Positions 4,249 to 14,578 of a DNA stretch of 14,578 nucleotides are shown here, in pieces (the stretch's first letter is position 1; each line of letters starts with the position of its first letter). Source of the stretch: a virus. The stretch lies in UHGV virus genome UHGV-0349585; one strand, written 5' to 3'. The notes beneath the pieces were generated by a model that saw nothing but the letters and a program-made list of their open reading frames with translations, was not told where the DNA came from and did no database searches. The position numbers and the translations under genes are program-made.

Positions 4249-4965
<717 letters not shown>

Positions 4966-5264: not shown

Positions 5265-5660
5265 ATGCACTTGAAGTTGTTAGGGCTGACCCAGCCTGCT
5301 GTTTCTTTAGAGCTTGCCGAGCGATACATCAACGCAACTGAGCCGAAGCCTAGCGACAGCAGCATTACTGCATATAAAAGCCGCATGGAAAGTGCAATCA
5401 AAAAGTTTGTAGCTTTCCAGTCTGGTGAAGAAATCCCATACACTCCGATTGACAAAGAATCCAGTGAGGAAAAAGATTTGACTGGCGAACCAACAAAAGT
5501 CGAAGGCAAGGCTAATGCACTTCATACCTATGATCTTCCAGTAGTTCTTCGACCTGAATCAGGGGTTACAGTAACGATTAAAGGCATTCCTAACGATATC
5601 ACAAACGAAGAAGCCGAACGCATCTCTTCAATTCTGAAGGTTTACGTTCGGCCTCAATAA
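5265..5660 (+). CDS. Hypothetical protein (131 aa) in the slot occupied by rexA/rexB in lambda
   Basis: Longest ORF between cI and the timm-like terminator, co-oriented with cI; acidic and Lys-rich composition; weak RBS; two antisense ORFs overlap it, so coding status is uncertain. Confidence 0.35.
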   Translation: MHLKLLGLTQPAVSLELAERYINATEPKPSDSSITAYKSRMESAIKKFVAFQSGEEIPYTPIDKESSEEKDLTGEPTKVEGKANALHTYDLPVVLRPESGVTVTIKGIPNDITNEEAERISSILKVYVRPQ

Positions 5661-6273: not shown

Positions 6274-6430
6274 AGCATTCAAAGCAGAAGGCTTTGGTGT
6301 GTGTGATACGAAACGAAGCATTGGCCGGAAGTGCGAATCCGGATTAGCTGCCAATGTGCCATTGCGGGGTGTTTTCGTTCAGGACTACGACTCCCACACA
6401 CAACCAAAGCTAACTGACAGGAGAATCCAG

Positions 6431-6757
6431 ATGGATGCACAAACACGCCGCCGCGAACGTCGCGCAGAGAAACAGGCTCAATGGAAAGCAGCAAATCCCC
6501 TGTTGGTTGGGGTAAGCGCAAAACCAGTTAACCGCCCTATTCTCTCGCTGAATCGCAAACCGAAATCACGAGTAGAAAGCGCACTGAATCCGATAGACCT
6601 TACAGTGCTGGCTGAATACCACGAACAGATTGAAAGCAACCTGCAACGTATTGAGCGCAAGAATCAGCGCACATGGTACAGCAAGCCACGCAGTGAAATG
6701 GGTGTGACTTGTGTTGGTCGCCAGAAAATGAAATTAGGCAGCAAACCACTTATTTGA
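6431..6757 (+). CDS. N: N antitermination protein (108 aa), lambda-like with a divergent C-terminus
   Basis: MDAQTRRRERRAEKQAQWKAANPLLVGVSAKPVNRPILSLNRKPK... with Arg-rich N-terminal motif; AGGAG RBS before ATG at 6431; ORF-track frame 6299-6757 is an upstream extension into the leader. Confidence 0.9.
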   Translation: MDAQTRRRERRAEKQAQWKAANPLLVGVSAKPVNRPILSLNRKPKSRVESALNPIDLTVLAEYHEQIESNLQRIERKNQRTWYSKPRSEMGVTCVGRQKMKLGSKPLI

Positions 6758-8895: not shown

Positions 8896-9603
8896 ATGGA
8901 TTTGAACAAATTCGATGAGCCATTCAGCCCCGAAGATATCGAATGGCGAATACAGCAAAGCGGTAAAACACGCGATGGCAAGGTGTGGGCTATGGTGCTG
9001 GCTTATGTCACGAACCGGGCAATCATGAAACGCCTGGATGATGTTTGCGGCAAAGCAGGATGGCGCAATGAATACCGCGATATTCCCAACAACGGCGGAG
9101 TTGAATGCGGCATATCAATCAAGATTGATTCCGAATGGGTAACCAAATGGGATGCTGCTGAAAACACGCAGGTAGAAGCCGTCAAAGGTGGTCGTTCCGG
9201 TGCAATGAAGCGTGCTGCCGTTCAGTGGGGAATCGGTCGGTATCTGTATAACCTTGAGGAAGGTTTCGCACAAACATCTCTCGACAAAAAGCAGGGATGG
9301 CACAGGGCAAAACTCAAGGATGGAACAGGATTTTACTGGCTCCCTCCATCGCTGCCGGGCTGGGCAATCCCAGCATCAGATAACAAACCATCACCAGAAA
9401 ATACCAACCAGAAATCTCCATCGGTTGACTGCGAACAAATCCTGAAAGACTTCAGCGATTATGCAGCGACAGAAACTGACAAGAAAAAACTCATCGAGCG
9501 TTATCAGCATGACTGGCAATTAATGGCTGGAAACGAGGAGGCGCAGGCTAAATGCGTTCAGGTAATGAACATCAGAGTTAACGAGCTAAAACAGGCGGCA
9601 TAA
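8896..9603 (+). CDS. Single-strand annealing protein, Rad52/Sak-like family (235 aa)
   Basis: RAAVQWGIGRYLY motif and overall size and layout resemble phage Rad52-family annealing proteins; GAGGTG RBS; directly precedes ssb. Confidence 0.7.
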   Translation: MDLNKFDEPFSPEDIEWRIQQSGKTRDGKVWAMVLAYVTNRAIMKRLDDVCGKAGWRNEYRDIPNNGGVECGISIKIDSEWVTKWDAAENTQVEAVKGGRSGAMKRAAVQWGIGRYLYNLEEGFAQTSLDKKQGWHRAKLKDGTGFYWLPPSLPGWAIPASDNKPSPENTNQKSPSVDCEQILKDFSDYAATETDKKKLIERYQHDWQLMAGNEEAQAKCVQVMNIRVNELKQAA

Positions 9604-10086: not shown

Positions 10087-10566
10087 ATGAAAATCTGCTC
10101 AAGATGCCATCAACAGAAGGAAGAAAGGGACTTTCAAATCAGAAGAGCATCCAGAGATGGATTAACTGCCGCTTGCCGGGCTTGCCTGGCTGAATATGAC
10201 AAAGAGCGCGCGGGATTGCCACATCGAGTATCAGCAAGGAGAGAATATCAATCATCGGAACGCGGCAGAGAACGGTGTAACGCAGCCAAAAAGCGGTTCA
10301 TTCAGAGCAACCCATGGAAAAGAAAAGCCCACATCATCGTGGGTAATTTTTTGCGCGACGGTAAGCTAATCCGACCACCACAATGTGAGTGCTGCGGATC
10401 AGAATGTAAACCACAGGCGCACCACTGCGACTACAGCAAACCAACCGATGTGATGTGGCTCTGCAAGTCATGTCATGTCGAGTGGCACAAACATAACAAA
10501 CCTATCTACCCAGACGAGGAGCCAGTAACTCTCCCCTTCCCTCGTCACGCTATTCACGCAATTTAA
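10087..10566 (+). CDS. HNH-endonuclease-like zinc-binding protein (159 aa)
   Basis: Two Cys clusters (CSRCH...CRAC and CECCGSEC...CKSCH) with an HH...WH arrangement typical of HNH nucleases; GGAG RBS. Confidence 0.6.
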   Translation: MKICSRCHQQKEERDFQIRRASRDGLTAACRACLAEYDKERAGLPHRVSARREYQSSERGRERCNAAKKRFIQSNPWKRKAHIIVGNFLRDGKLIRPPQCECCGSECKPQAHHCDYSKPTDVMWLCKSCHVEWHKHNKPIYPDEEPVTLPFPRHAIHAI

Positions 10567-10574
10567 GGACTTAC

Positions 10575-11123
10575 ATGAATCACTTGATGGTTGACCTTGA
10601 AACAATGGGCAACGGGCCATACGCGCCAGTTATTTCTATTGGGTCGGTATTCTTTGACCCGAATACCGGAGAAACAGGAGAAGAGTTCTCGGTAAATATC
10701 TCGCTTGAATCATCAATGCGATATCGAGCGCGTCCTGACGCTTCAACGATTTTATGGTGGCTGGAACAGAGTGAAGAAGCCAGAAAATCGCTAACCAGCA
10801 ACACTCAGGAGCTTTCAACGGCTCTTTCATGGTTATCTGAATTCATCATAAAGAACGCTAACCACAAATTCGTTCAGGTTTGGGGGAATGGAGCATCATT
10901 TGACTGCGTTATTCTCCGAAACAGTTATTCGCTGACAGGGCAGCCAGTTCCGTGGCAGTGGTGGAATGACCGCGACGTAAGAACAATCGTCGAACTTGGG
11001 AAGGTAATAGGATTCGACCCTAAGCGAGATATGCCATTCAAAGGAACTCGCCACAACGCGCTTGATGATGCCATTCACCAAGCCAAATACGTTTCAGCGA
11101 TCTGGAAAAAGTTAGCTAAATAA
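10575..11123 (+). CDS. DEDDh-type 3'-5' exonuclease (DnaQ-like fold), 182 aa
   Basis: Exo I-like motif MVDLETMG near the N-terminus and Exo III-like motif H-x4-D (HNALDDAIH) near the C-terminus; AAGGA RBS. Confidence 0.7.
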   Translation: MNHLMVDLETMGNGPYAPVISIGSVFFDPNTGETGEEFSVNISLESSMRYRARPDASTILWWLEQSEEARKSLTSNTQELSTALSWLSEFIIKNANHKFVQVWGNGASFDCVILRNSYSLTGQPVPWQWWNDRDVRTIVELGKVIGFDPKRDMPFKGTRHNALDDAIHQAKYVSAIWKKLAK

Positions 11124-11139
11124 TCAACAGGAGAAAACC

Positions 11140-11436
11140 ATGCCAGCGCCTCTGTATGGTGCGGATGACCCGCGCCGCTGTTCCGGCAATTCCGTATCGG
11201 AGGTGCTGGAAAATATCAAGAATAATCTCGACGCGTTTCTTGCTCTGCCACCAGAAACAAAAGAAGAACGGAAGTGCCGACGCGATATACAACTCGCAGA
11301 AAAACAGGAAAAAGACCGAATAAACGAAACATCAATCCGACCATTCCGCAAAGCCACATATACCCACTTCCCTGAATATATCGACCCGCGCCTGCGTAAT
11401 TACCGCTCACGCTATGGCGCTATCAGTAATGACTGA
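11140..11436 (+). CDS. Hypothetical protein (98 aa)
   Basis: AGGAG RBS before ATG at 11140; ORF-track protein; no recognised motif. Confidence 0.55.
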   Translation: MPAPLYGADDPRRCSGNSVSEVLENIKNNLDAFLALPPETKEERKCRRDIQLAEKQEKDRINETSIRPFRKATYTHFPEYIDPRLRNYRSRYGAISND

Positions 11437-11446
11437 GGAATTTACC

Positions 11447-11737
11447 ATGAAAACAATGAAGCTAAACATCGACCTCGGAAAATACGTTATTACCGGAACC
11501 AAACACGATCTGATTCTTAGTGAAAGAGGAATTATCAAAGAAGGCGAGAATGCAGGGAAAGAAACACTAAGCCGTATCGGTTATTACAGCAAGTTTGAGC
11601 ATCTGGTTAAAGAATTATGCAACCGTGAAATCCTGTTATCTCAGGCGCAGACGCTACAGGATATTCAGCAGCATATCGAAACTTTAGGTATGTCACTTAG
11701 CATGGCTATTGACCAGTTCGTTGAGAGTAAATCATGA
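11447..11737 (+). CDS. Hypothetical protein (96 aa)
   Basis: GAGGA RBS before ATG at 11447 ([13 protein letters not shown]...); ORF-track frame begins upstream at 11414 without an RBS. Confidence 0.55.
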
Positions 11738-11901
11738 GAGGACTTGCATACAATCCCGGCATTCTTCCGGCAGAAATGATTATTCGCCAGCGCGTAAAGC
11801 CAATGCCATCGAGAGAGGAATTGCTTAAGAGAAAGAGTTTCGGTTCTGTTAATGACAACAAATATCTGAATGCGATGTGGCGTAAAGGAGGCAACCAGTG
11901 A
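11734..11901 (+). CDS. Small hypothetical protein (55 aa), translationally coupled
   Basis: ATGA overlap with the previous stop; my own translation [55 protein letters not shown]. Confidence 0.4.
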
Positions 11902-12164
11902 GTGAGTCAAAATGCCAAATTAATGGCAACAAGATAGAACCGTGCGCGGCGTTGGCACAATCCCTGGAGCATGACGCTGAATACACGACGCGAAAAGGTC
12001 TGCTGAAATACAAAATCTATAACCATGCATTAATTCATTCACAAGACCTGATCATGCTGCGGTCTGGTGAATTTTCTAAATCGCCTATTCGAGTTTCATT
12101 TTGCCCGTTCTGTGGTGAAAGTCTGAAAACGTGGGAAGCGGAGGCAACCAGTGAGCGAAATTAA
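11898..12164 (+). CDS. Hypothetical Cys-containing protein (88 aa), GTG start
   Basis: AGGAGG RBS 7 nt upstream of GTG at 11898 (GTGA overlap with the previous stop); C-terminal [10 protein letters not shown] zinc-ribbon-like motif. Confidence 0.5.
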
Positions 12165-12831
12165 TTACCAGGCACTGCGTGAGGCGGCAGTGAAAGCAAC
12201 GTGGGGAGACTGGGACTCATATAAACCACACCGTGGCGCACGTGGTTATGAGGTCCGACTAAGTAGTCAGGCCATTGCGCAACACGTTCTGAAAAACAAC
12301 GCTGAATTTATTGCTGCCTTTAATCCAAAGATTGCTTTGGCGCTACTGGATGAACGGGAAAGAAACCAGCAATACATCAAACGCCGCGACCAGGAGAACG
12401 AGGATATTGCACTAACGGTAGGGAGGCTGCGCGTTGAGCTTGAGGAAGTAAAACAACACGCTGAAGAATTATCCGAAACCAAGGCTGTTCGTAACCAATG
12501 GCGGCCAGATATTTGCCCAATAACCGGACGTGCATTTTTCATGTGGATTGAGCATCCAACATTGGGAAATGTGCCGACATATGGTGGCCCATTAGATAGT
12601 TACACCATTCCAACAAAGGACGGTGACGGTGAGTTTTCATGTGAGCGTTACGATCATGATTTTGGCGGTTGGGTAGAAAGCGAATGTCTTGGGTTATATC
12701 TGATTGATGATAGAGAACAATGCAGGGTCTACGAACTGGAGGAACGCGTTAAGGAACTGGATGCTCGGGAAATATCGCTCCCGGAACGTAGCAGCATGCT
12801 TCATCGAACAGATTTTCACGATGATTACTAA
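12151..12831 (+). CDS. Ead/Ea22-like family protein (226 aa), GTG start
   Basis: N-terminal YQALREAAVKATWGDWD and central coiled-coil are typical of Ea22-like proteins of lambdoid prophages; GGAGG RBS before GTG. Confidence 0.65.
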   Translation: MSEINYQALREAAVKATWGDWDSYKPHRGARGYEVRLSSQAIAQHVLKNNAEFIAAFNPKIALALLDERERNQQYIKRRDQENEDIALTVGRLRVELEEVKQHAEELSETKAVRNQWRPDICPITGRAFFMWIEHPTLGNVPTYGGPLDSYTIPTKDGDGEFSCERYDHDFGGWVESECLGLYLIDDREQCRVYELEERVKELDAREISLPERSSMLHRTDFHDDY

Positions 12832-12907
12832 ACGGTAATGGCATACAAAGTTTCTGAAGTCATCGCTGCAATCCGCGCCGCAGGCATTCGCATCAAAGGA
12901 GAGTGAT

Positions 12908-13504
12908 ATGAGCGCTATAACCAAAGAACGTATCGAATTATTCATTAAAAATCCGCTCGATAACGGACTTACCCGTGGCGAACAAATGGAACTTGCACGA
13001 ATTGCACTGGCATCGCTGGAAGCAGATCCAGTTGCTTATATTTTCAAACATCCGGCCGGGAAATTATTCTGGGCTTTAACGGATGAAAGCAATAAAGAGC
13101 AAGCGGACGTTATTCCTGTTTATGCCGCCCCTCCAGTGCCAGTAGTACCTGAAGAAAAACCAATGCCTAACCCTCTTAAAATGTACGCGGTCGATGCTGT
13201 TGCCGCTATTGCAGAGGTGAGAGGCTGGAATGCCTGCCGCGCCGCCATGCTTCAGGGTAAATCAGAACAACCACAAAACGCACAACAAAATATTCCGGAA
13301 AATTTTCCTGATGGCAACTATCCGGTAACTCCGGATGGTTGGGTTATGGTGCCCAAGGAGTTAACACCGGAAATGATGAGAGCCGTTCAGATTAGAAGTG
13401 AGCTTGGAGGGTATGCCACTTCCAATCTATCTGGTGCATACAATATGTTTTCTGAGTTCTGGAATGTTGCTGTCTCAGCTGCGCCTAAGGTGGATTATTT
13501 ATGA
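12908..13504 (+). CDS. Hypothetical protein (198 aa)
   Basis: AAGGAG RBS 7 nt upstream of ATG; Pro-rich central linker between two globular-looking halves. Confidence 0.6.
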   Translation: MSAITKERIELFIKNPLDNGLTRGEQMELARIALASLEADPVAYIFKHPAGKLFWALTDESNKEQADVIPVYAAPPVPVVPEEKPMPNPLKMYAVDAVAAIAEVRGWNACRAAMLQGKSEQPQNAQQNIPENFPDGNYPVTPDGWVMVPKELTPEMMRAVQIRSELGGYATSNLSGAYNMFSEFWNVAVSAAPKVDYL

Positions 13505-13803
13505 ATCTATATCGCTGCCCATTCTGTGGTTCCACTGTGCTTAACATCGGATACTCATTCAGTATCAGAGGGAAAATGCGCTATGTGTCATGCAAATGTG
13601 GTGCCAAAGGACCAGAAAAACGAACTAGATCTGAAGCGATTTCTTCATGGAATAGTCGAATGAAAGTATGGGTTTATGATCCAGAAACAATATTAAACGT
13701 TGAAGAGCGCAGGAGAACGGAAGTCTATATTCATAACCTTAATGAAGATGGATTTACACCAGTGCTTGTAAAGGCTACTCCGCAGGAGGTTAACCGTGGC
13801 TAA
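13501..13803 (+). CDS. Lar-family-like zinc-ribbon protein (100 aa), candidate restriction-alleviation factor
   Basis: N-terminal CPFCG...C.CG zinc ribbon followed by EAISSWNSR, resembling Lar-family proteins of Rac-like prophages; ATGA overlap with upstream gene. Confidence 0.55.
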   Translation: MNLYRCPFCGSTVLNIGYSFSIRGKMRYVSCKCGAKGPEKRTRSEAISSWNSRMKVWVYDPETILNVEERRRTEVYIHNLNEDGFTPVLVKATPQEVNRG

Positions 13804-14080
13804 CCTGCAACTTGCCGTTAAAGGTGAATACTTCGATGCCATGATTCGCGGAGAGAAAACGGAAGAGTATCGCCTGTGTAATGACTACTGGAATAAGCGA
13901 ATTCTGTTCCGCGAGTATGACCGCCTGATTATCACAAAGGGATATCCGAAGCGCGATGATTCCAGCCGCAGAATAGACGTCCCGTATGACGGATATGAAA
14001 TCAAGACAATCACGCATCCCCACTTCGGCGATAAACCGGTAAAGGTTTACGCGATAAAGGTAAATATCGGCAATGAATAA
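13796..14080 (+). CDS. ASCH/DUF3850-like small protein (94 aa), GTG start
   Basis: AGGAGG RBS 6 nt upstream of GTG; N-terminal ...AVKGEYFDAMIRGEKTEEYR... resembles the ASCH-like beta-barrel signature. Confidence 0.5.
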   Translation: MANLQLAVKGEYFDAMIRGEKTEEYRLCNDYWNKRILFREYDRLIITKGYPKRDDSSRRIDVPYDGYEIKTITHPHFGDKPVKVYAIKVNIGNE

Positions 14081-14084
14081 CAAT

Positions 14085-14110
14085 CCTCGCACTCGCGGGG
14101 ATTTCTTTTA
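14085..14110 (+). terminator. Possible intrinsic terminator after the ASCH-like gene
   Basis: CCTCGC/GCGGGG stem (one G-U pair) with 4-nt loop followed by ATTTCTTTTA. Confidence 0.4.
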
Positions 14111-14152
14111 TCTGAACTCGCTACGGCGAGTTTTGTTTTATGGAGATGATAA

Positions 14153-14320
14153 ATGCACTTCCGAGTCACAGGTGAATGGAATGGAGAGCCATTTGACAGG
14201 GTTATCGAAGCAGAGGACATCAACGACTGCTATAACCACTGGATGATATGGGCGCAGATAGCACATGCAGACATAACCAATATTCGAATTGAAGAACTGA
14301 AAGAACACAAAGCCGCCTGA
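14153..14320 (+). CDS. Small hypothetical protein (55 aa)
   Basis: GGAGA RBS 5 nt upstream of ATG; my own translation MHFRVTGEWNGEPFDRVIEAEDINDCYNHWMIWAQIAHADITNIRIEELKEHKAA; stop lies inside the next terminator. Confidence 0.4.
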   Translation: MHFRVTGEWNGEPFDRVIEAEDINDCYNHWMIWAQIAHADITNIRIEELKEHKAA

Positions 14321-14334
14321 TGGCGGTTTTTTAT
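14311..14334 (+). terminator. Intrinsic terminator upstream of the excisionase-like gene
   Basis: GCCGCC/GGCGGT stem with TGAT tetraloop followed by TTTTTTATT. Confidence 0.55.
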
Positions 14335-14377
14335 TGCCTGATTTGCAGGTTCGATTCCCTATTCGGAGATAGCACTC

Positions 14378-14578
14378 ATGCAACACGAACTACAGCCTGA
14401 TTCACTGGTTGATTTGAAATTCATCATGGCTGATACTGGCTTCGGTAAAACCTTCATCTATGACCGGATTAAGTCCGGAGACCAGCCTAAAGCCAAAGTT
14501 ATCCACGGGCGAGCAAGATGGTTATATCGTGACCATTGTGAATTCAAAAATAAGCTCTTAAGCCGCGCCAATGGGTAA
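14378..14578 (+). CDS. AlpA/excisionase-like helix-turn-helix protein (66 aa); likely Xis of the integration module
   Basis: ADTGFGKTFIYDRIKSGDQPKAKVIHGRARWLYRD matches the AlpA/Xis DNA-binding signature; sits at the distal end of the pL operon where xis-int lie in lambdoid phages. Confidence 0.6.
   Translation: MQHELQPDSLVDLKFIMADTGFGKTFIYDRIKSGDQPKAKVIHGRARWLYRDHCEFKNKLLSRANG

Follow-up and report, generated by a model that had tools for sequence, protein, structure and literature searches.

The distal pL operon and its five genes

The window analysed here is a stretch of 14,578 nucleotides of UHGV virus genome UHGV-0349585, and the five genes under study follow one another on its + strand between positions 11898 and 14080. 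They occupy the distal part of the pL operon in an imm-lambda Sf6/HK620-like prophage of E. coli; the assignment to the P22/Sf6/HK620-like prophages is based on operon context and gene order, both of which match those of Sf6 and HK620-type phages. The features to which we refer are as follows.

4252-4965, + strand: lambda-type cI, upstream of the cluster
within 6299-6757, + strand: N, upstream of the cluster
11140-11436: Abc2 (anti-RecBCD), about 460 bp upstream of the cluster; Pfam and PHROG match
11887-11902, + strand: left copy of an exact 16-nt repeat, GGAGGCAACCAGTGAG, with the Shine-Dalgarno sequence and GTG start of the 88-aa gene
11898-12164, + strand: gene for an 88-aa four-cysteine protein; GTG start; phrog_4030 at 9e-44
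12140-12155, + strand: right copy of the 16-nt repeat, with the Shine-Dalgarno sequence and GTG start of the Ea22-like gene
12151-12831, + strand: Ead/Ea22-family protein, 226 aa; GTG start; Pfam PF13935 match
12908-13504, + strand: Eaa-type mosaic protein, 198 aa; ATG start; phrog_60 at 1e-32
13501-13803, + strand: Lar-family protein, 100 aa; ATG start; TIGR03655 and PF14354 above their cut-offs
13796-14080, + strand: minimal ASCH-domain (PUA-like fold) protein, 94 aa; GTG start; phrog_625 at 1.8e-50
14082-14103 and 14114-14133, + strand: two tandem terminator-like hairpins with T-runs, directly 3' of the last cluster gene

All five open reading frames were recovered at exactly the coordinates given in a preliminary description of this DNA, and they are real genes, each matching a protein family in Pfam, NCBIfam or PHROGs far beyond chance. 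That description had also placed them in the distal pL operon and called them mostly translationally coupled, and both statements hold. cI and N lie upstream on the same strand, N is followed by Erf, SSB and Abc2, and a Xis/TorI-like gene lies downstream of the cluster; four of the five junctions are overlaps and there is a single gap. The first gene overlaps the DUF2737 gene upstream of it by 4 nt, and the junctions that follow are an overlap of 14 nt, the 76-nt gap, an ATGA overlap of 4 nt and one of 8 nt. Sequence searches of the PDB with all five proteins returned nothing significant.

The region is already known and annotated, regions of this type having been on record from the time of the P22, HK620 and Sf6 genome papers. 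For four of the five genes, public records contain named close relatives (Lar family, Ead/Ea22-like, ASCH and Eaa), with identities to these named relatives of 97% for Lar, 97% for ASCH and about 71% for Eaa, and the discovery value of the region is small.

A mosaic of exchangeable cassettes

The preliminary description grouped these genes as a candidate anti-restriction cluster. We gathered 86 loci carrying the 88-aa gene with an alignment of its close relatives, and found within 4 kb of it a Lar gene in 1 locus, an ASCH gene in 3 and an Ea22 N-domain in 34. The gene immediately downstream belongs to 15 different clusters, the largest of which (41 of 85) is an unrelated 103-aa protein, and the upstream neighbour of ASCH varies in the same manner, being DUF4752, DUF551, DUF550, Lar or a hypothetical gene. 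Not one of 50,697 phage records or 5,426 complete E. coli genomes holds at least 80% of the region in one place; pieces of it are present in 556 of the phage records and 4,212 of the E. coli genomes. Two apparent pairings were considered and rejected. The 88-aa gene and Ea22 occur together in all six exact-match loci, but in only the 34 of 86 loci of the wider sample. ASCH adjoins Lar in 12 of the 12 E. coli matches listed, yet a functional link between them was rejected because ASCH is found in tenfold more genomes, where it follows a variety of other genes, and because Lar occurs in Sf6 with no ASCH gene. The five genes form neither a unit nor a co-evolved system.

A possible basis for this exchange is visible at the junctions, where two copies of the 16-nt repeat (two matches found, 0.13 expected by chance) bracket the 88-aa gene as a cassette. 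With up to two mismatches allowed, the repeat is present at the 5' junction in 32 of the 86 related loci, at the 3' junction in 37 and on both sides in 25. In Sf6, the annotated boundary sequence bsq3 lies at the start of the Ea22-like gene 21, the equivalent Ea22 start. The flanking repeat and the Sf6 boundary sequence together fit the boundary-sequence recombination model for lambdoid mosaicism, as it is summarised in PMC3233612 (citing Clark et al. 2001). The cluster is most probably a run of five cassettes, either genes or domains, that can each be exchanged alone and that meet where stop and start codons overlap, at junctions that include short conserved boundary sequences.

The Ea22-like gene illustrates exchange at the level of domains. 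Its assignment in the preliminary description is secure, since PF13935 scores 97.4 bits against a gathering cut-off of 27 (1.4e-27, residues 2-110), and the conserved N-terminal domain so defined (about 1-110) is followed by a C-terminal domain (about 113-226) that is unrelated to it and moves on its own: this C-domain also follows other variants of the N-domain, and in locus L065 it forms an ORF by itself. The Ea22-like protein most likely biases the lysis-lysogeny decision, as the Ea22 of lambda and Stx phages does (PMC7093339). The 198-aa Eaa-type protein, which matches no Pfam or NCBIfam family, is a mosaic of another kind. It matches pieces of 11 PHROG families, aligns piecewise with an E. 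coli homologue and has at least 8000 candidate relatives at E<=1e-3 (8000 of the 8000 scored), which are named Eaa/eaA protein, DUF551, DUF550 or Ea22-like depending on the modules present.

The last gene had been described as ASCH-like, an assignment that stands at the level of the fold. The protein carries the motif G19-x-K21-x-x-E24-x-R26 (GxKxxExR) and conforms to the ASCH/PUA-like beta-barrel; the sequence score with Pfam ASCH (PF04266) is 14.3 bits, below the gathering score of 21.2, with an alignment confined to residues 6-29, and a PDB search with the ASCH profile gave nothing significant. It is 9-23% identical to the E. faecalis ASCH protein 3iuw, P. horikoshii PH0355, the E. coli ac4C amidohydrolase YqfB and the Z. 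mobilis ASCH RNase, and has Glu24 where YqfB has its catalytic Thr24. Going by the fold, the ligand of the protein is most likely a nucleic acid or nucleoside, which it would bind or process.

The Lar-family protein, the four-cysteine protein and counter-defence

Of the five cassettes, only that encoding the Lar-family protein (13501-13803) has a functional precedent at the level of the family. The Lar assignment made in the preliminary description was confirmed by HMM search, in which both curated cut-offs were passed, TIGR03655 with 58.2 bits against 39.6 (7.5e-16; residues 3-54 cover all 55 model positions) and PF14354 with 35.6 bits against 28.6; the protein also matches phrog_599, 'Lar-like restriction alleviation protein'. 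Its zinc-ribbon Lar domain (residues 1-54) holds CPFCG at residues 6-10, cysteines C6, C9, C31 and C33 (C31-K-C33) and the WNxR motif W50-N51-S52-R53, and is followed by a 46-aa C-terminal extension without known relatives or Pfam match. The gene is present, at a coverage of at least 80%, in 153-154 of the 5,426 complete E. coli genomes, and translation shows it intact in both of the E. coli chromosomes examined. PGAP annotates this 100-aa gene, although intact, as a pseudogene plus a 47-aa ORF, so that surveys miss it.

Lar is known as an anti-restriction protein (PMC6158711) and, in the citation of King and Murray (1995) given in PMC4041452, is described as working like Ral, which is made early from the pL operon and accelerates de novo methylation by type IA enzymes (PMC12707154). 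[quoted passage not shown] By analogy with the family, the window protein would most likely be made early after infection or induction; its probable target, as for Rac Lar and lambda Ral, is a type IA (EcoKI-like) restriction-modification enzyme, which would then methylate unmodified phage DNA instead of cutting it. Judged from sequence, an anti-restriction role is plausible for the Lar gene only. A literature search found no member of the family other than Rac Lar reported as tested for restriction alleviation.

Restriction alleviation is not the sole activity on record for the Lar family, and the window protein might instead be a DNase toxin like that of the type I toxin-antitoxin pair in Rac. 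RalR, the founder of the family, is reported to be a toxic, non-specific DNase that cleaves both methylated and unmethylated DNA and is paired with the sRNA antitoxin RalA (PMC4041452); its K-12 RefSeq name is 'endodeoxyribonuclease toxin RalR'. We consider this activity quite unlikely for the window protein. Changes at positions 14, 37, 39, 49, 51 and 52 reduce RalR toxicity, and K52Q abolishes its DNase activity (PMC4041452); in the window protein N51 is kept, Lys52 and Arg49 are both replaced by Ser, and the alignment is poor around positions 14, 37 and 39. A RalA-type antitoxin was not found at the locus, with no Rfam family matched anywhere in the window and no rcbA-like neighbour, although an undescribed sRNA might be encoded there. 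Two weak minus-strand promoter-like sites occur in 11000-14578, fewer than in shuffles. Furthermore, the gene is no stand-alone toxin locus but is coupled in translation to its neighbours in a long operon, and its intactness and frequency in E. coli genomes (see above) point the same way. The literature is divided between Lar/RalR as a restriction modulator and as a DNase.

The preliminary description also pointed to a C-terminal FCPFCG motif in the product of 11898-12164 and grouped this with the Lar-like protein under CPFCG zinc-ribbon proteins. The motif is present (residues 68-73); the kinship with Lar is not, the zinc knuckle, C-terminal in the 88-aa protein and N-terminal in Lar, being all that they have in common. 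The two are small products of one operon, and their genes are alike over a 15-nt coding stretch with one mismatch at the CPFCG knuckle, which would speak for a divergent second Lar/Ral-type anti-restriction protein. This reading is nevertheless highly improbable: the proteins align over 8 residues by BLASTP and 13 columns by hhalign, confined to the knuckle, WNxR is absent from the 88-aa protein, no Lar model in Pfam, NCBIfam or PHROGs matches it, Lar lies near its gene in only one of the 86 loci, and its family has a conserved pattern of its own (KC..PC..L..E..KG...SG...FCPFCG). CPxCG is a generic zinc-ribbon knuckle.

This family is distinct from Lar, unnamed, widespread and wholly uncharacterised. 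C6, C16, C69, C72 and P70 are invariant in 60 diverse members, and the protein presumably binds zinc. All 69 clusters of close relatives are annotated 'hypothetical', and a profile search with the family reached 267 representative clusters (50% identity) at E<=1e-3, with relatives of about 80-100 aa in the early operons of many unrelated phages and in P1/P7-like phage-plasmids. No Pfam family matched the query, 14 close relatives or the 60 diverse members; DUF6980, DUF7835 and generic zinc-ribbons were set aside as names, their Pfam matches being sub-threshold and similar at the level of the knuckle. Neither sequence nor profile searches identified a PDB relative. The only structure returned for the profile was 7oqy_Y (E=0.11), a knuckle-level match on which TFS4 was rejected as a relative, and the NCBIfam model TransFacS4 reached 15.6 bits, below its cut-off of 120. 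Were this weak, sub-threshold likeness to the archaeal RNA-polymerase inhibitor TFS4 taken at face value, it would suggest that the 88-aa zinc-ribbon protein targets a host nucleic-acid enzyme. The AF2 model is unusable (pLDDT 46, built from a 14-sequence alignment). There is a slim chance that this undescribed C-x9-C ... C-x2-C family represents a new host-takeover or counter-defence factor. The family is one of three points of practical value in the region, the others being the divided literature on Lar/RalR and the splitting of the Lar gene by PGAP.

A broader proposal is that the whole segment is a counter-defence island, in which Lar blocks type I restriction and each of the other four proteins neutralises another host defence. 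Its position fits that of the accessory regions defined by Silas et al., where new counter-defence genes were discovered beside known ones such as ral, ocr and abc2 (bioRxiv 10.1101/2023.04.06.535777), Abc2 itself is encoded a short distance upstream, and the five genes are small, early-expressed, variable and non-essential, like most anti-defence genes. Accessory regions with one counter-defence gene often hold others (bioRxiv 10.1101/2023.04.06.535777), and independent mobility is therefore compatible with counter-defence roles for the neighbours. Such an island is nonetheless unlikely. The genes do not co-occur beyond chance mosaicism, no PADLOC, Pfam or NCBIfam model ties any neighbour of Lar to defence or anti-defence, Lar, ASCH and Ea22 are absent from the main text of both Silas et al. 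screen papers, and a literature search found no report in which Lar-like, ASCH or Ea22 proteins had been assayed for anti-defence activity. Among relatives of the neighbours, only Ea22 of lambda and Stx phages has been tested; it is pro-lysogenic and affects the lysis-lysogeny choice, not restriction (PMC7093339). A functional anti-restriction cluster is accordingly not upheld for these independent cassettes with their changing neighbours. Very probably, an N-antiterminated pL operon ends here in an ordinary accessory segment of the 'ea' (exo-xis) type, made up of independent cassettes of which one is Lar-like.

Comparison with Rac Lar, lambda Ral and the 'ea' regions of related phages

The closest functional reference for the Lar-family protein is Rac Lar/RalR (E. 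coli K-12 b1348), to which it is 34% identical over 53 aa (E=1e-5). The two fall in the same HMM family, with an N-terminal CPFCG, a second cysteine pair and (A)(I/L)xxWNxR, and each is encoded in the early-left operon of a lambdoid prophage. RalR has C9PFC12G, C30xxC33 and W50N51K52R53, whereas the second pair of the window protein is CxC rather than CxxC; RalR is also shorter (64 aa against 100) and does not have the 46-aa extension. Lambda Ral, which is not known to be a four-cysteine protein, resembles the window protein in its proposed mode of action, with no significant sequence relationship. An identity of 24% has been reported between RalR and Ral (PMC4041452).

The Ea22-like protein and the Ea22 of lambda and Stx phages have the Ead_Ea22 N-terminal domain in common, and a variable C-terminus is typical of the family (PMC7093339; PMC10834534). 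No solved chain, the lambda Ea22 C-terminal domain included, is detectably similar to the C-domain encoded in the window, and Sf6 gp21 aligns with the window protein over the N-terminus only.

Genes 23-19 of Sf6 (its early-left 'ea' region), the hka genes of HK620 and the ea genes of P22 form the same kind of region. Sf6 and the window are alike in the succession of Abc2, DUF5405, DUF2737, a variable cassette, an Ea22-like gene and a Lar-like gene, followed by Xis/TorI, and the Lar protein is 97% identical to Sf6 gp20, whose RefSeq name is 'Lar-like restriction alleviation protein'. They differ in the cassettes between these landmarks: Sf6 has the DUF7739-type gene 22 where the window has the 88-aa four-cysteine gene, has no Eaa-type gene, and carries gene 19 in place of the ASCH gene.

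The lambdoid setting of the five genes

The window is an arm of a lambdoid prophage, laid out as follows.

minus strand: lambda-type cro, cII, replication genes and ninB
4252-4965, plus strand: lambda-type cI
within 6299-6757, plus strand: N
8896-9603, plus strand: Erf
between Erf and Abc2, plus strand: SSB, an HNH protein and an Rv2179c-like 3'-5' exonuclease
11140-11436, plus strand: Abc2 anti-RecBCD protein
after Abc2, plus strand: DUF5405 and DUF2737, then the five genes
11898-12164, plus strand: 88-aa protein with a C-terminal FCPFCG
12151-12831, plus strand: Ea22-like protein
12908-13504, plus strand: Eaa-type protein
13501-13803, plus strand: Lar-like protein
13796-14080, plus strand: ASCH protein
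3' of the five genes, plus strand: a 55-aa ORF, then a Xis/TorI-type gene reaching the window end

Its closest DNA matches are Sf6, HK620, HK022, other Lederbergvirus/lambdoid phages and Stx-converting phages, and a metagenome contig (L005) with the same gene order and 99-100% identical proteins puts the prophage next to the csc sucrose operon of E. coli. Gene order, DNA matches and this contig thus bear out the distal pL operon setting given in the preliminary description, and all five ORFs lie where it had placed them. Their junctions comprise overlaps of 4, 14, 4 and 8 nt and a single gap of 76 nt, and the strong family matches of all five mark them as true genes, not ORFs that arose by chance.

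Elsewhere in the window, a 131-aa ORF (5265-5660; phrog_2602, no Pfam match) lies between cI and N, the slot of rexA/rexB in lambda and of RexA/RexB in the comparison locus L007; this placement makes it a candidate for an exclusion or defence gene expressed from the prophage. The N-terminal zinc-ribbon (residues 1-69) of the HNH-type endonuclease (10087-10566) weakly matches phrog_5558 (7.5e-7), a different PHROG also labelled 'Lar-like restriction alleviation protein', probably because the label has spread through zinc-ribbon similarity. The full-length Rv2179c-like 3'-5' exoribonuclease-domain protein (10575-11123; PF16473, 2.4e-72) belongs to the recombination module, 16 bp upstream of the Abc2 start. 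Two tandem terminator-like hairpins with T-runs (14082-14133) directly follow the ASCH gene, and a third such site (14313-14333; CCGCC-TGAT-GGCGG, then TTTTTT) overlaps the 55-aa ORF (14153-14320) at its stop codon, a short distance 5' of the Xis/TorI-like gene; N-antiterminated transcription presumably reads through them.

Independent assortment of the accessory genes

The region is a known accessory region of the ea/exo-xis type, with four of its five genes already named in public annotation, and the five genes are not a functional cluster. The coordinated anti-restriction cluster proposed earlier is not supported, as the neighbours of the 88-aa gene and of ASCH change between loci. Parts of the region turn up in 556 phage records, as they do in 4,212 E. 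coli genomes, and none of either has at least 80% of it in one place. Of 86 loci with the 88-aa gene, one has Lar within 4 kb, three have ASCH and 34 have an Ea22 N-domain; the immediate 3' neighbour falls into 15 clusters, the commonest an unrelated 103-aa protein, and the gene upstream of ASCH also varies widely. The four neighbours of the Lar-like gene could still have counter-defence roles, since a counter-defence gene in an accessory region is often accompanied by others (bioRxiv 10.1101/2023.04.06.535777); nothing in PADLOC or the literature points to them, as a PADLOC search gave no match and we found no published test of these families as counter-defence factors.

The preliminary names of two neighbours hold. 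The Ea22-like protein has a clear Ead/Ea22 N-terminal domain, and its C-terminal domain is also seen following different N-domain variants and as an ORF of its own; Ea22 of lambda and Stx phages, which favours lysogeny (PMC7093339), has different C-termini. The 13796-14080 product is indeed ASCH-like. The 12908-13504 product is an Eaa-type mosaic protein, whose relatives are called Eaa, DUF551, DUF550 or Ea22-like depending on their modules. Just upstream of the 88-aa gene, 18 of 85 loci (L009 7400-8008 and 17 others; also L089 4234-4863), mostly P1/P7-like phage-plasmids, encode a ~200-aa putative ASCH protein, whose GxKTQTRR motif is of the ASCH type; in RefSeq, plasmids of this kind (H65-H67) have an 'ASCH domain-containing protein' annotated next to the 88-aa gene.

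An exact 16-nt direct repeat, GGAGGCAACCAGTGAG, flanks the 88-aa gene (11887-11902 and 12140-12155), providing the Shine-Dalgarno sequence and GTG start of both this gene and the Ea22 gene; both flanks carry it in 25 of the 86 loci. Sf6 has an annotated 'boundary sequence' at the equivalent Ea22 start, and lambdoid mosaicism has been proposed to arise from recombination targeted at boundary sequences (PMC3233612, citing Clark et al. 2001 on HK620). An exchange between the two repeat copies would excise the 88-aa gene cleanly and put DUF2737 right next to the Ea22 start. Among related loci a few alternative junctions occur, all of the same GGAGG-N7-GTGAG type.

The Lar-like C-terminal tail PQEVNRG (13775-13803), whose coding stretch contains the Shine-Dalgarno sequence and GTG start of ASCH, has a counterpart, PQEEVNRG, closing an unrelated Ea22-DUF551 protein of another locus (L006, around 9290-9306) in which a search gave no ASCH match; this resembles a further in-frame mosaic joint.

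The 88-aa four-cysteine protein

The idea that the 88-aa protein is a further zinc-ribbon protein of the Lar type is not supported: it aligns with Lar at the knuckle only, which lies at its C-terminus but at the N-terminus of Lar, and it matches no Lar model, ruling it out as a relative. Across 60 diverse family members C6, C16, C69, P70 and C72 are invariant and F71 and G73 nearly so, a cysteine pattern that is the signature of a predicted four-cysteine metal site joining both protein ends. A profile run against 1.84 billion representatives gave 267 clusters of 80-100-aa proteins aligning end to end; we found no Pfam model, and a PDB profile search found no solved relative. Close members, all named 'hypothetical', are confined to Enterobacteriaceae prophages, being found in lambdoid prophages and P1/P7-like phage-plasmids (of the 467 places with the gene in E. 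coli, 125 are on plasmids), and distant ones lie within runs of small early genes of unrelated phages. This uncharacterised family is the sole mildly novel element of the region.

The Lar-like protein and known anti-restriction systems

The assignment of 13501-13803 to the Lar family is confirmed, both the TIGR03655 (58.2 bits, cut-off 39.6) and PF14354 (35.6 bits, cut-off 28.6) thresholds being passed; residues 3-54 span the whole 55-position model, and every family feature that can be checked from sequence is present. Residues 55-100 form an extension for which a family search gave no match. The variant is rare in sequenced phages (six records: two of Sf6, four of Stx1a phages) and occurs in 154 of 5,426 complete E. 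coli genomes.

Translation of two E. coli chromosomes showed the 100-aa ORF to be intact (L095 2501-2803, L003 3850-4152); RefSeq/PGAP calls there a Lar pseudogene ('missing C-terminus') and a separate 47-aa hypothetical protein from Met54. A metagenome gene caller (L005 9679-9906) starts the ORF at Met26, losing the CPFCG knuckle, and Sf6 RefSeq has a single 100-aa protein. This variant will be overlooked or shortened in surveys of Lar genes.

Sf6 gp20, named 'Lar-like restriction alleviation protein' in RefSeq, is 97% identical to the protein. Rac Lar/RalR is 34% identical over 53 residues and has in common with it CPFCG, the second cysteine pair and WNxR. Lar is listed among anti-RM proteins (PMC6158711), and one description of the founding Lar has it relieving EcoKI restriction and enhancing modification in the manner of Ral (King and Murray 1995, as cited in PMC4041452). 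The other description, given for it as RalR, is of a toxin with non-specific DNase activity, paired with an sRNA antitoxin (PMC4041452). In a Ral-like mechanism, type IA enzymes carry out de novo methylation faster (PMC12707154), and we prefer such acceleration to a DNase toxin for the 13501-13803 protein, giving it about an even chance, because no RalA-like context was found at this gene and two RalR residues, R49 and K52, a change of the latter having abolished DNase activity, are both serine in the Lar-like protein.
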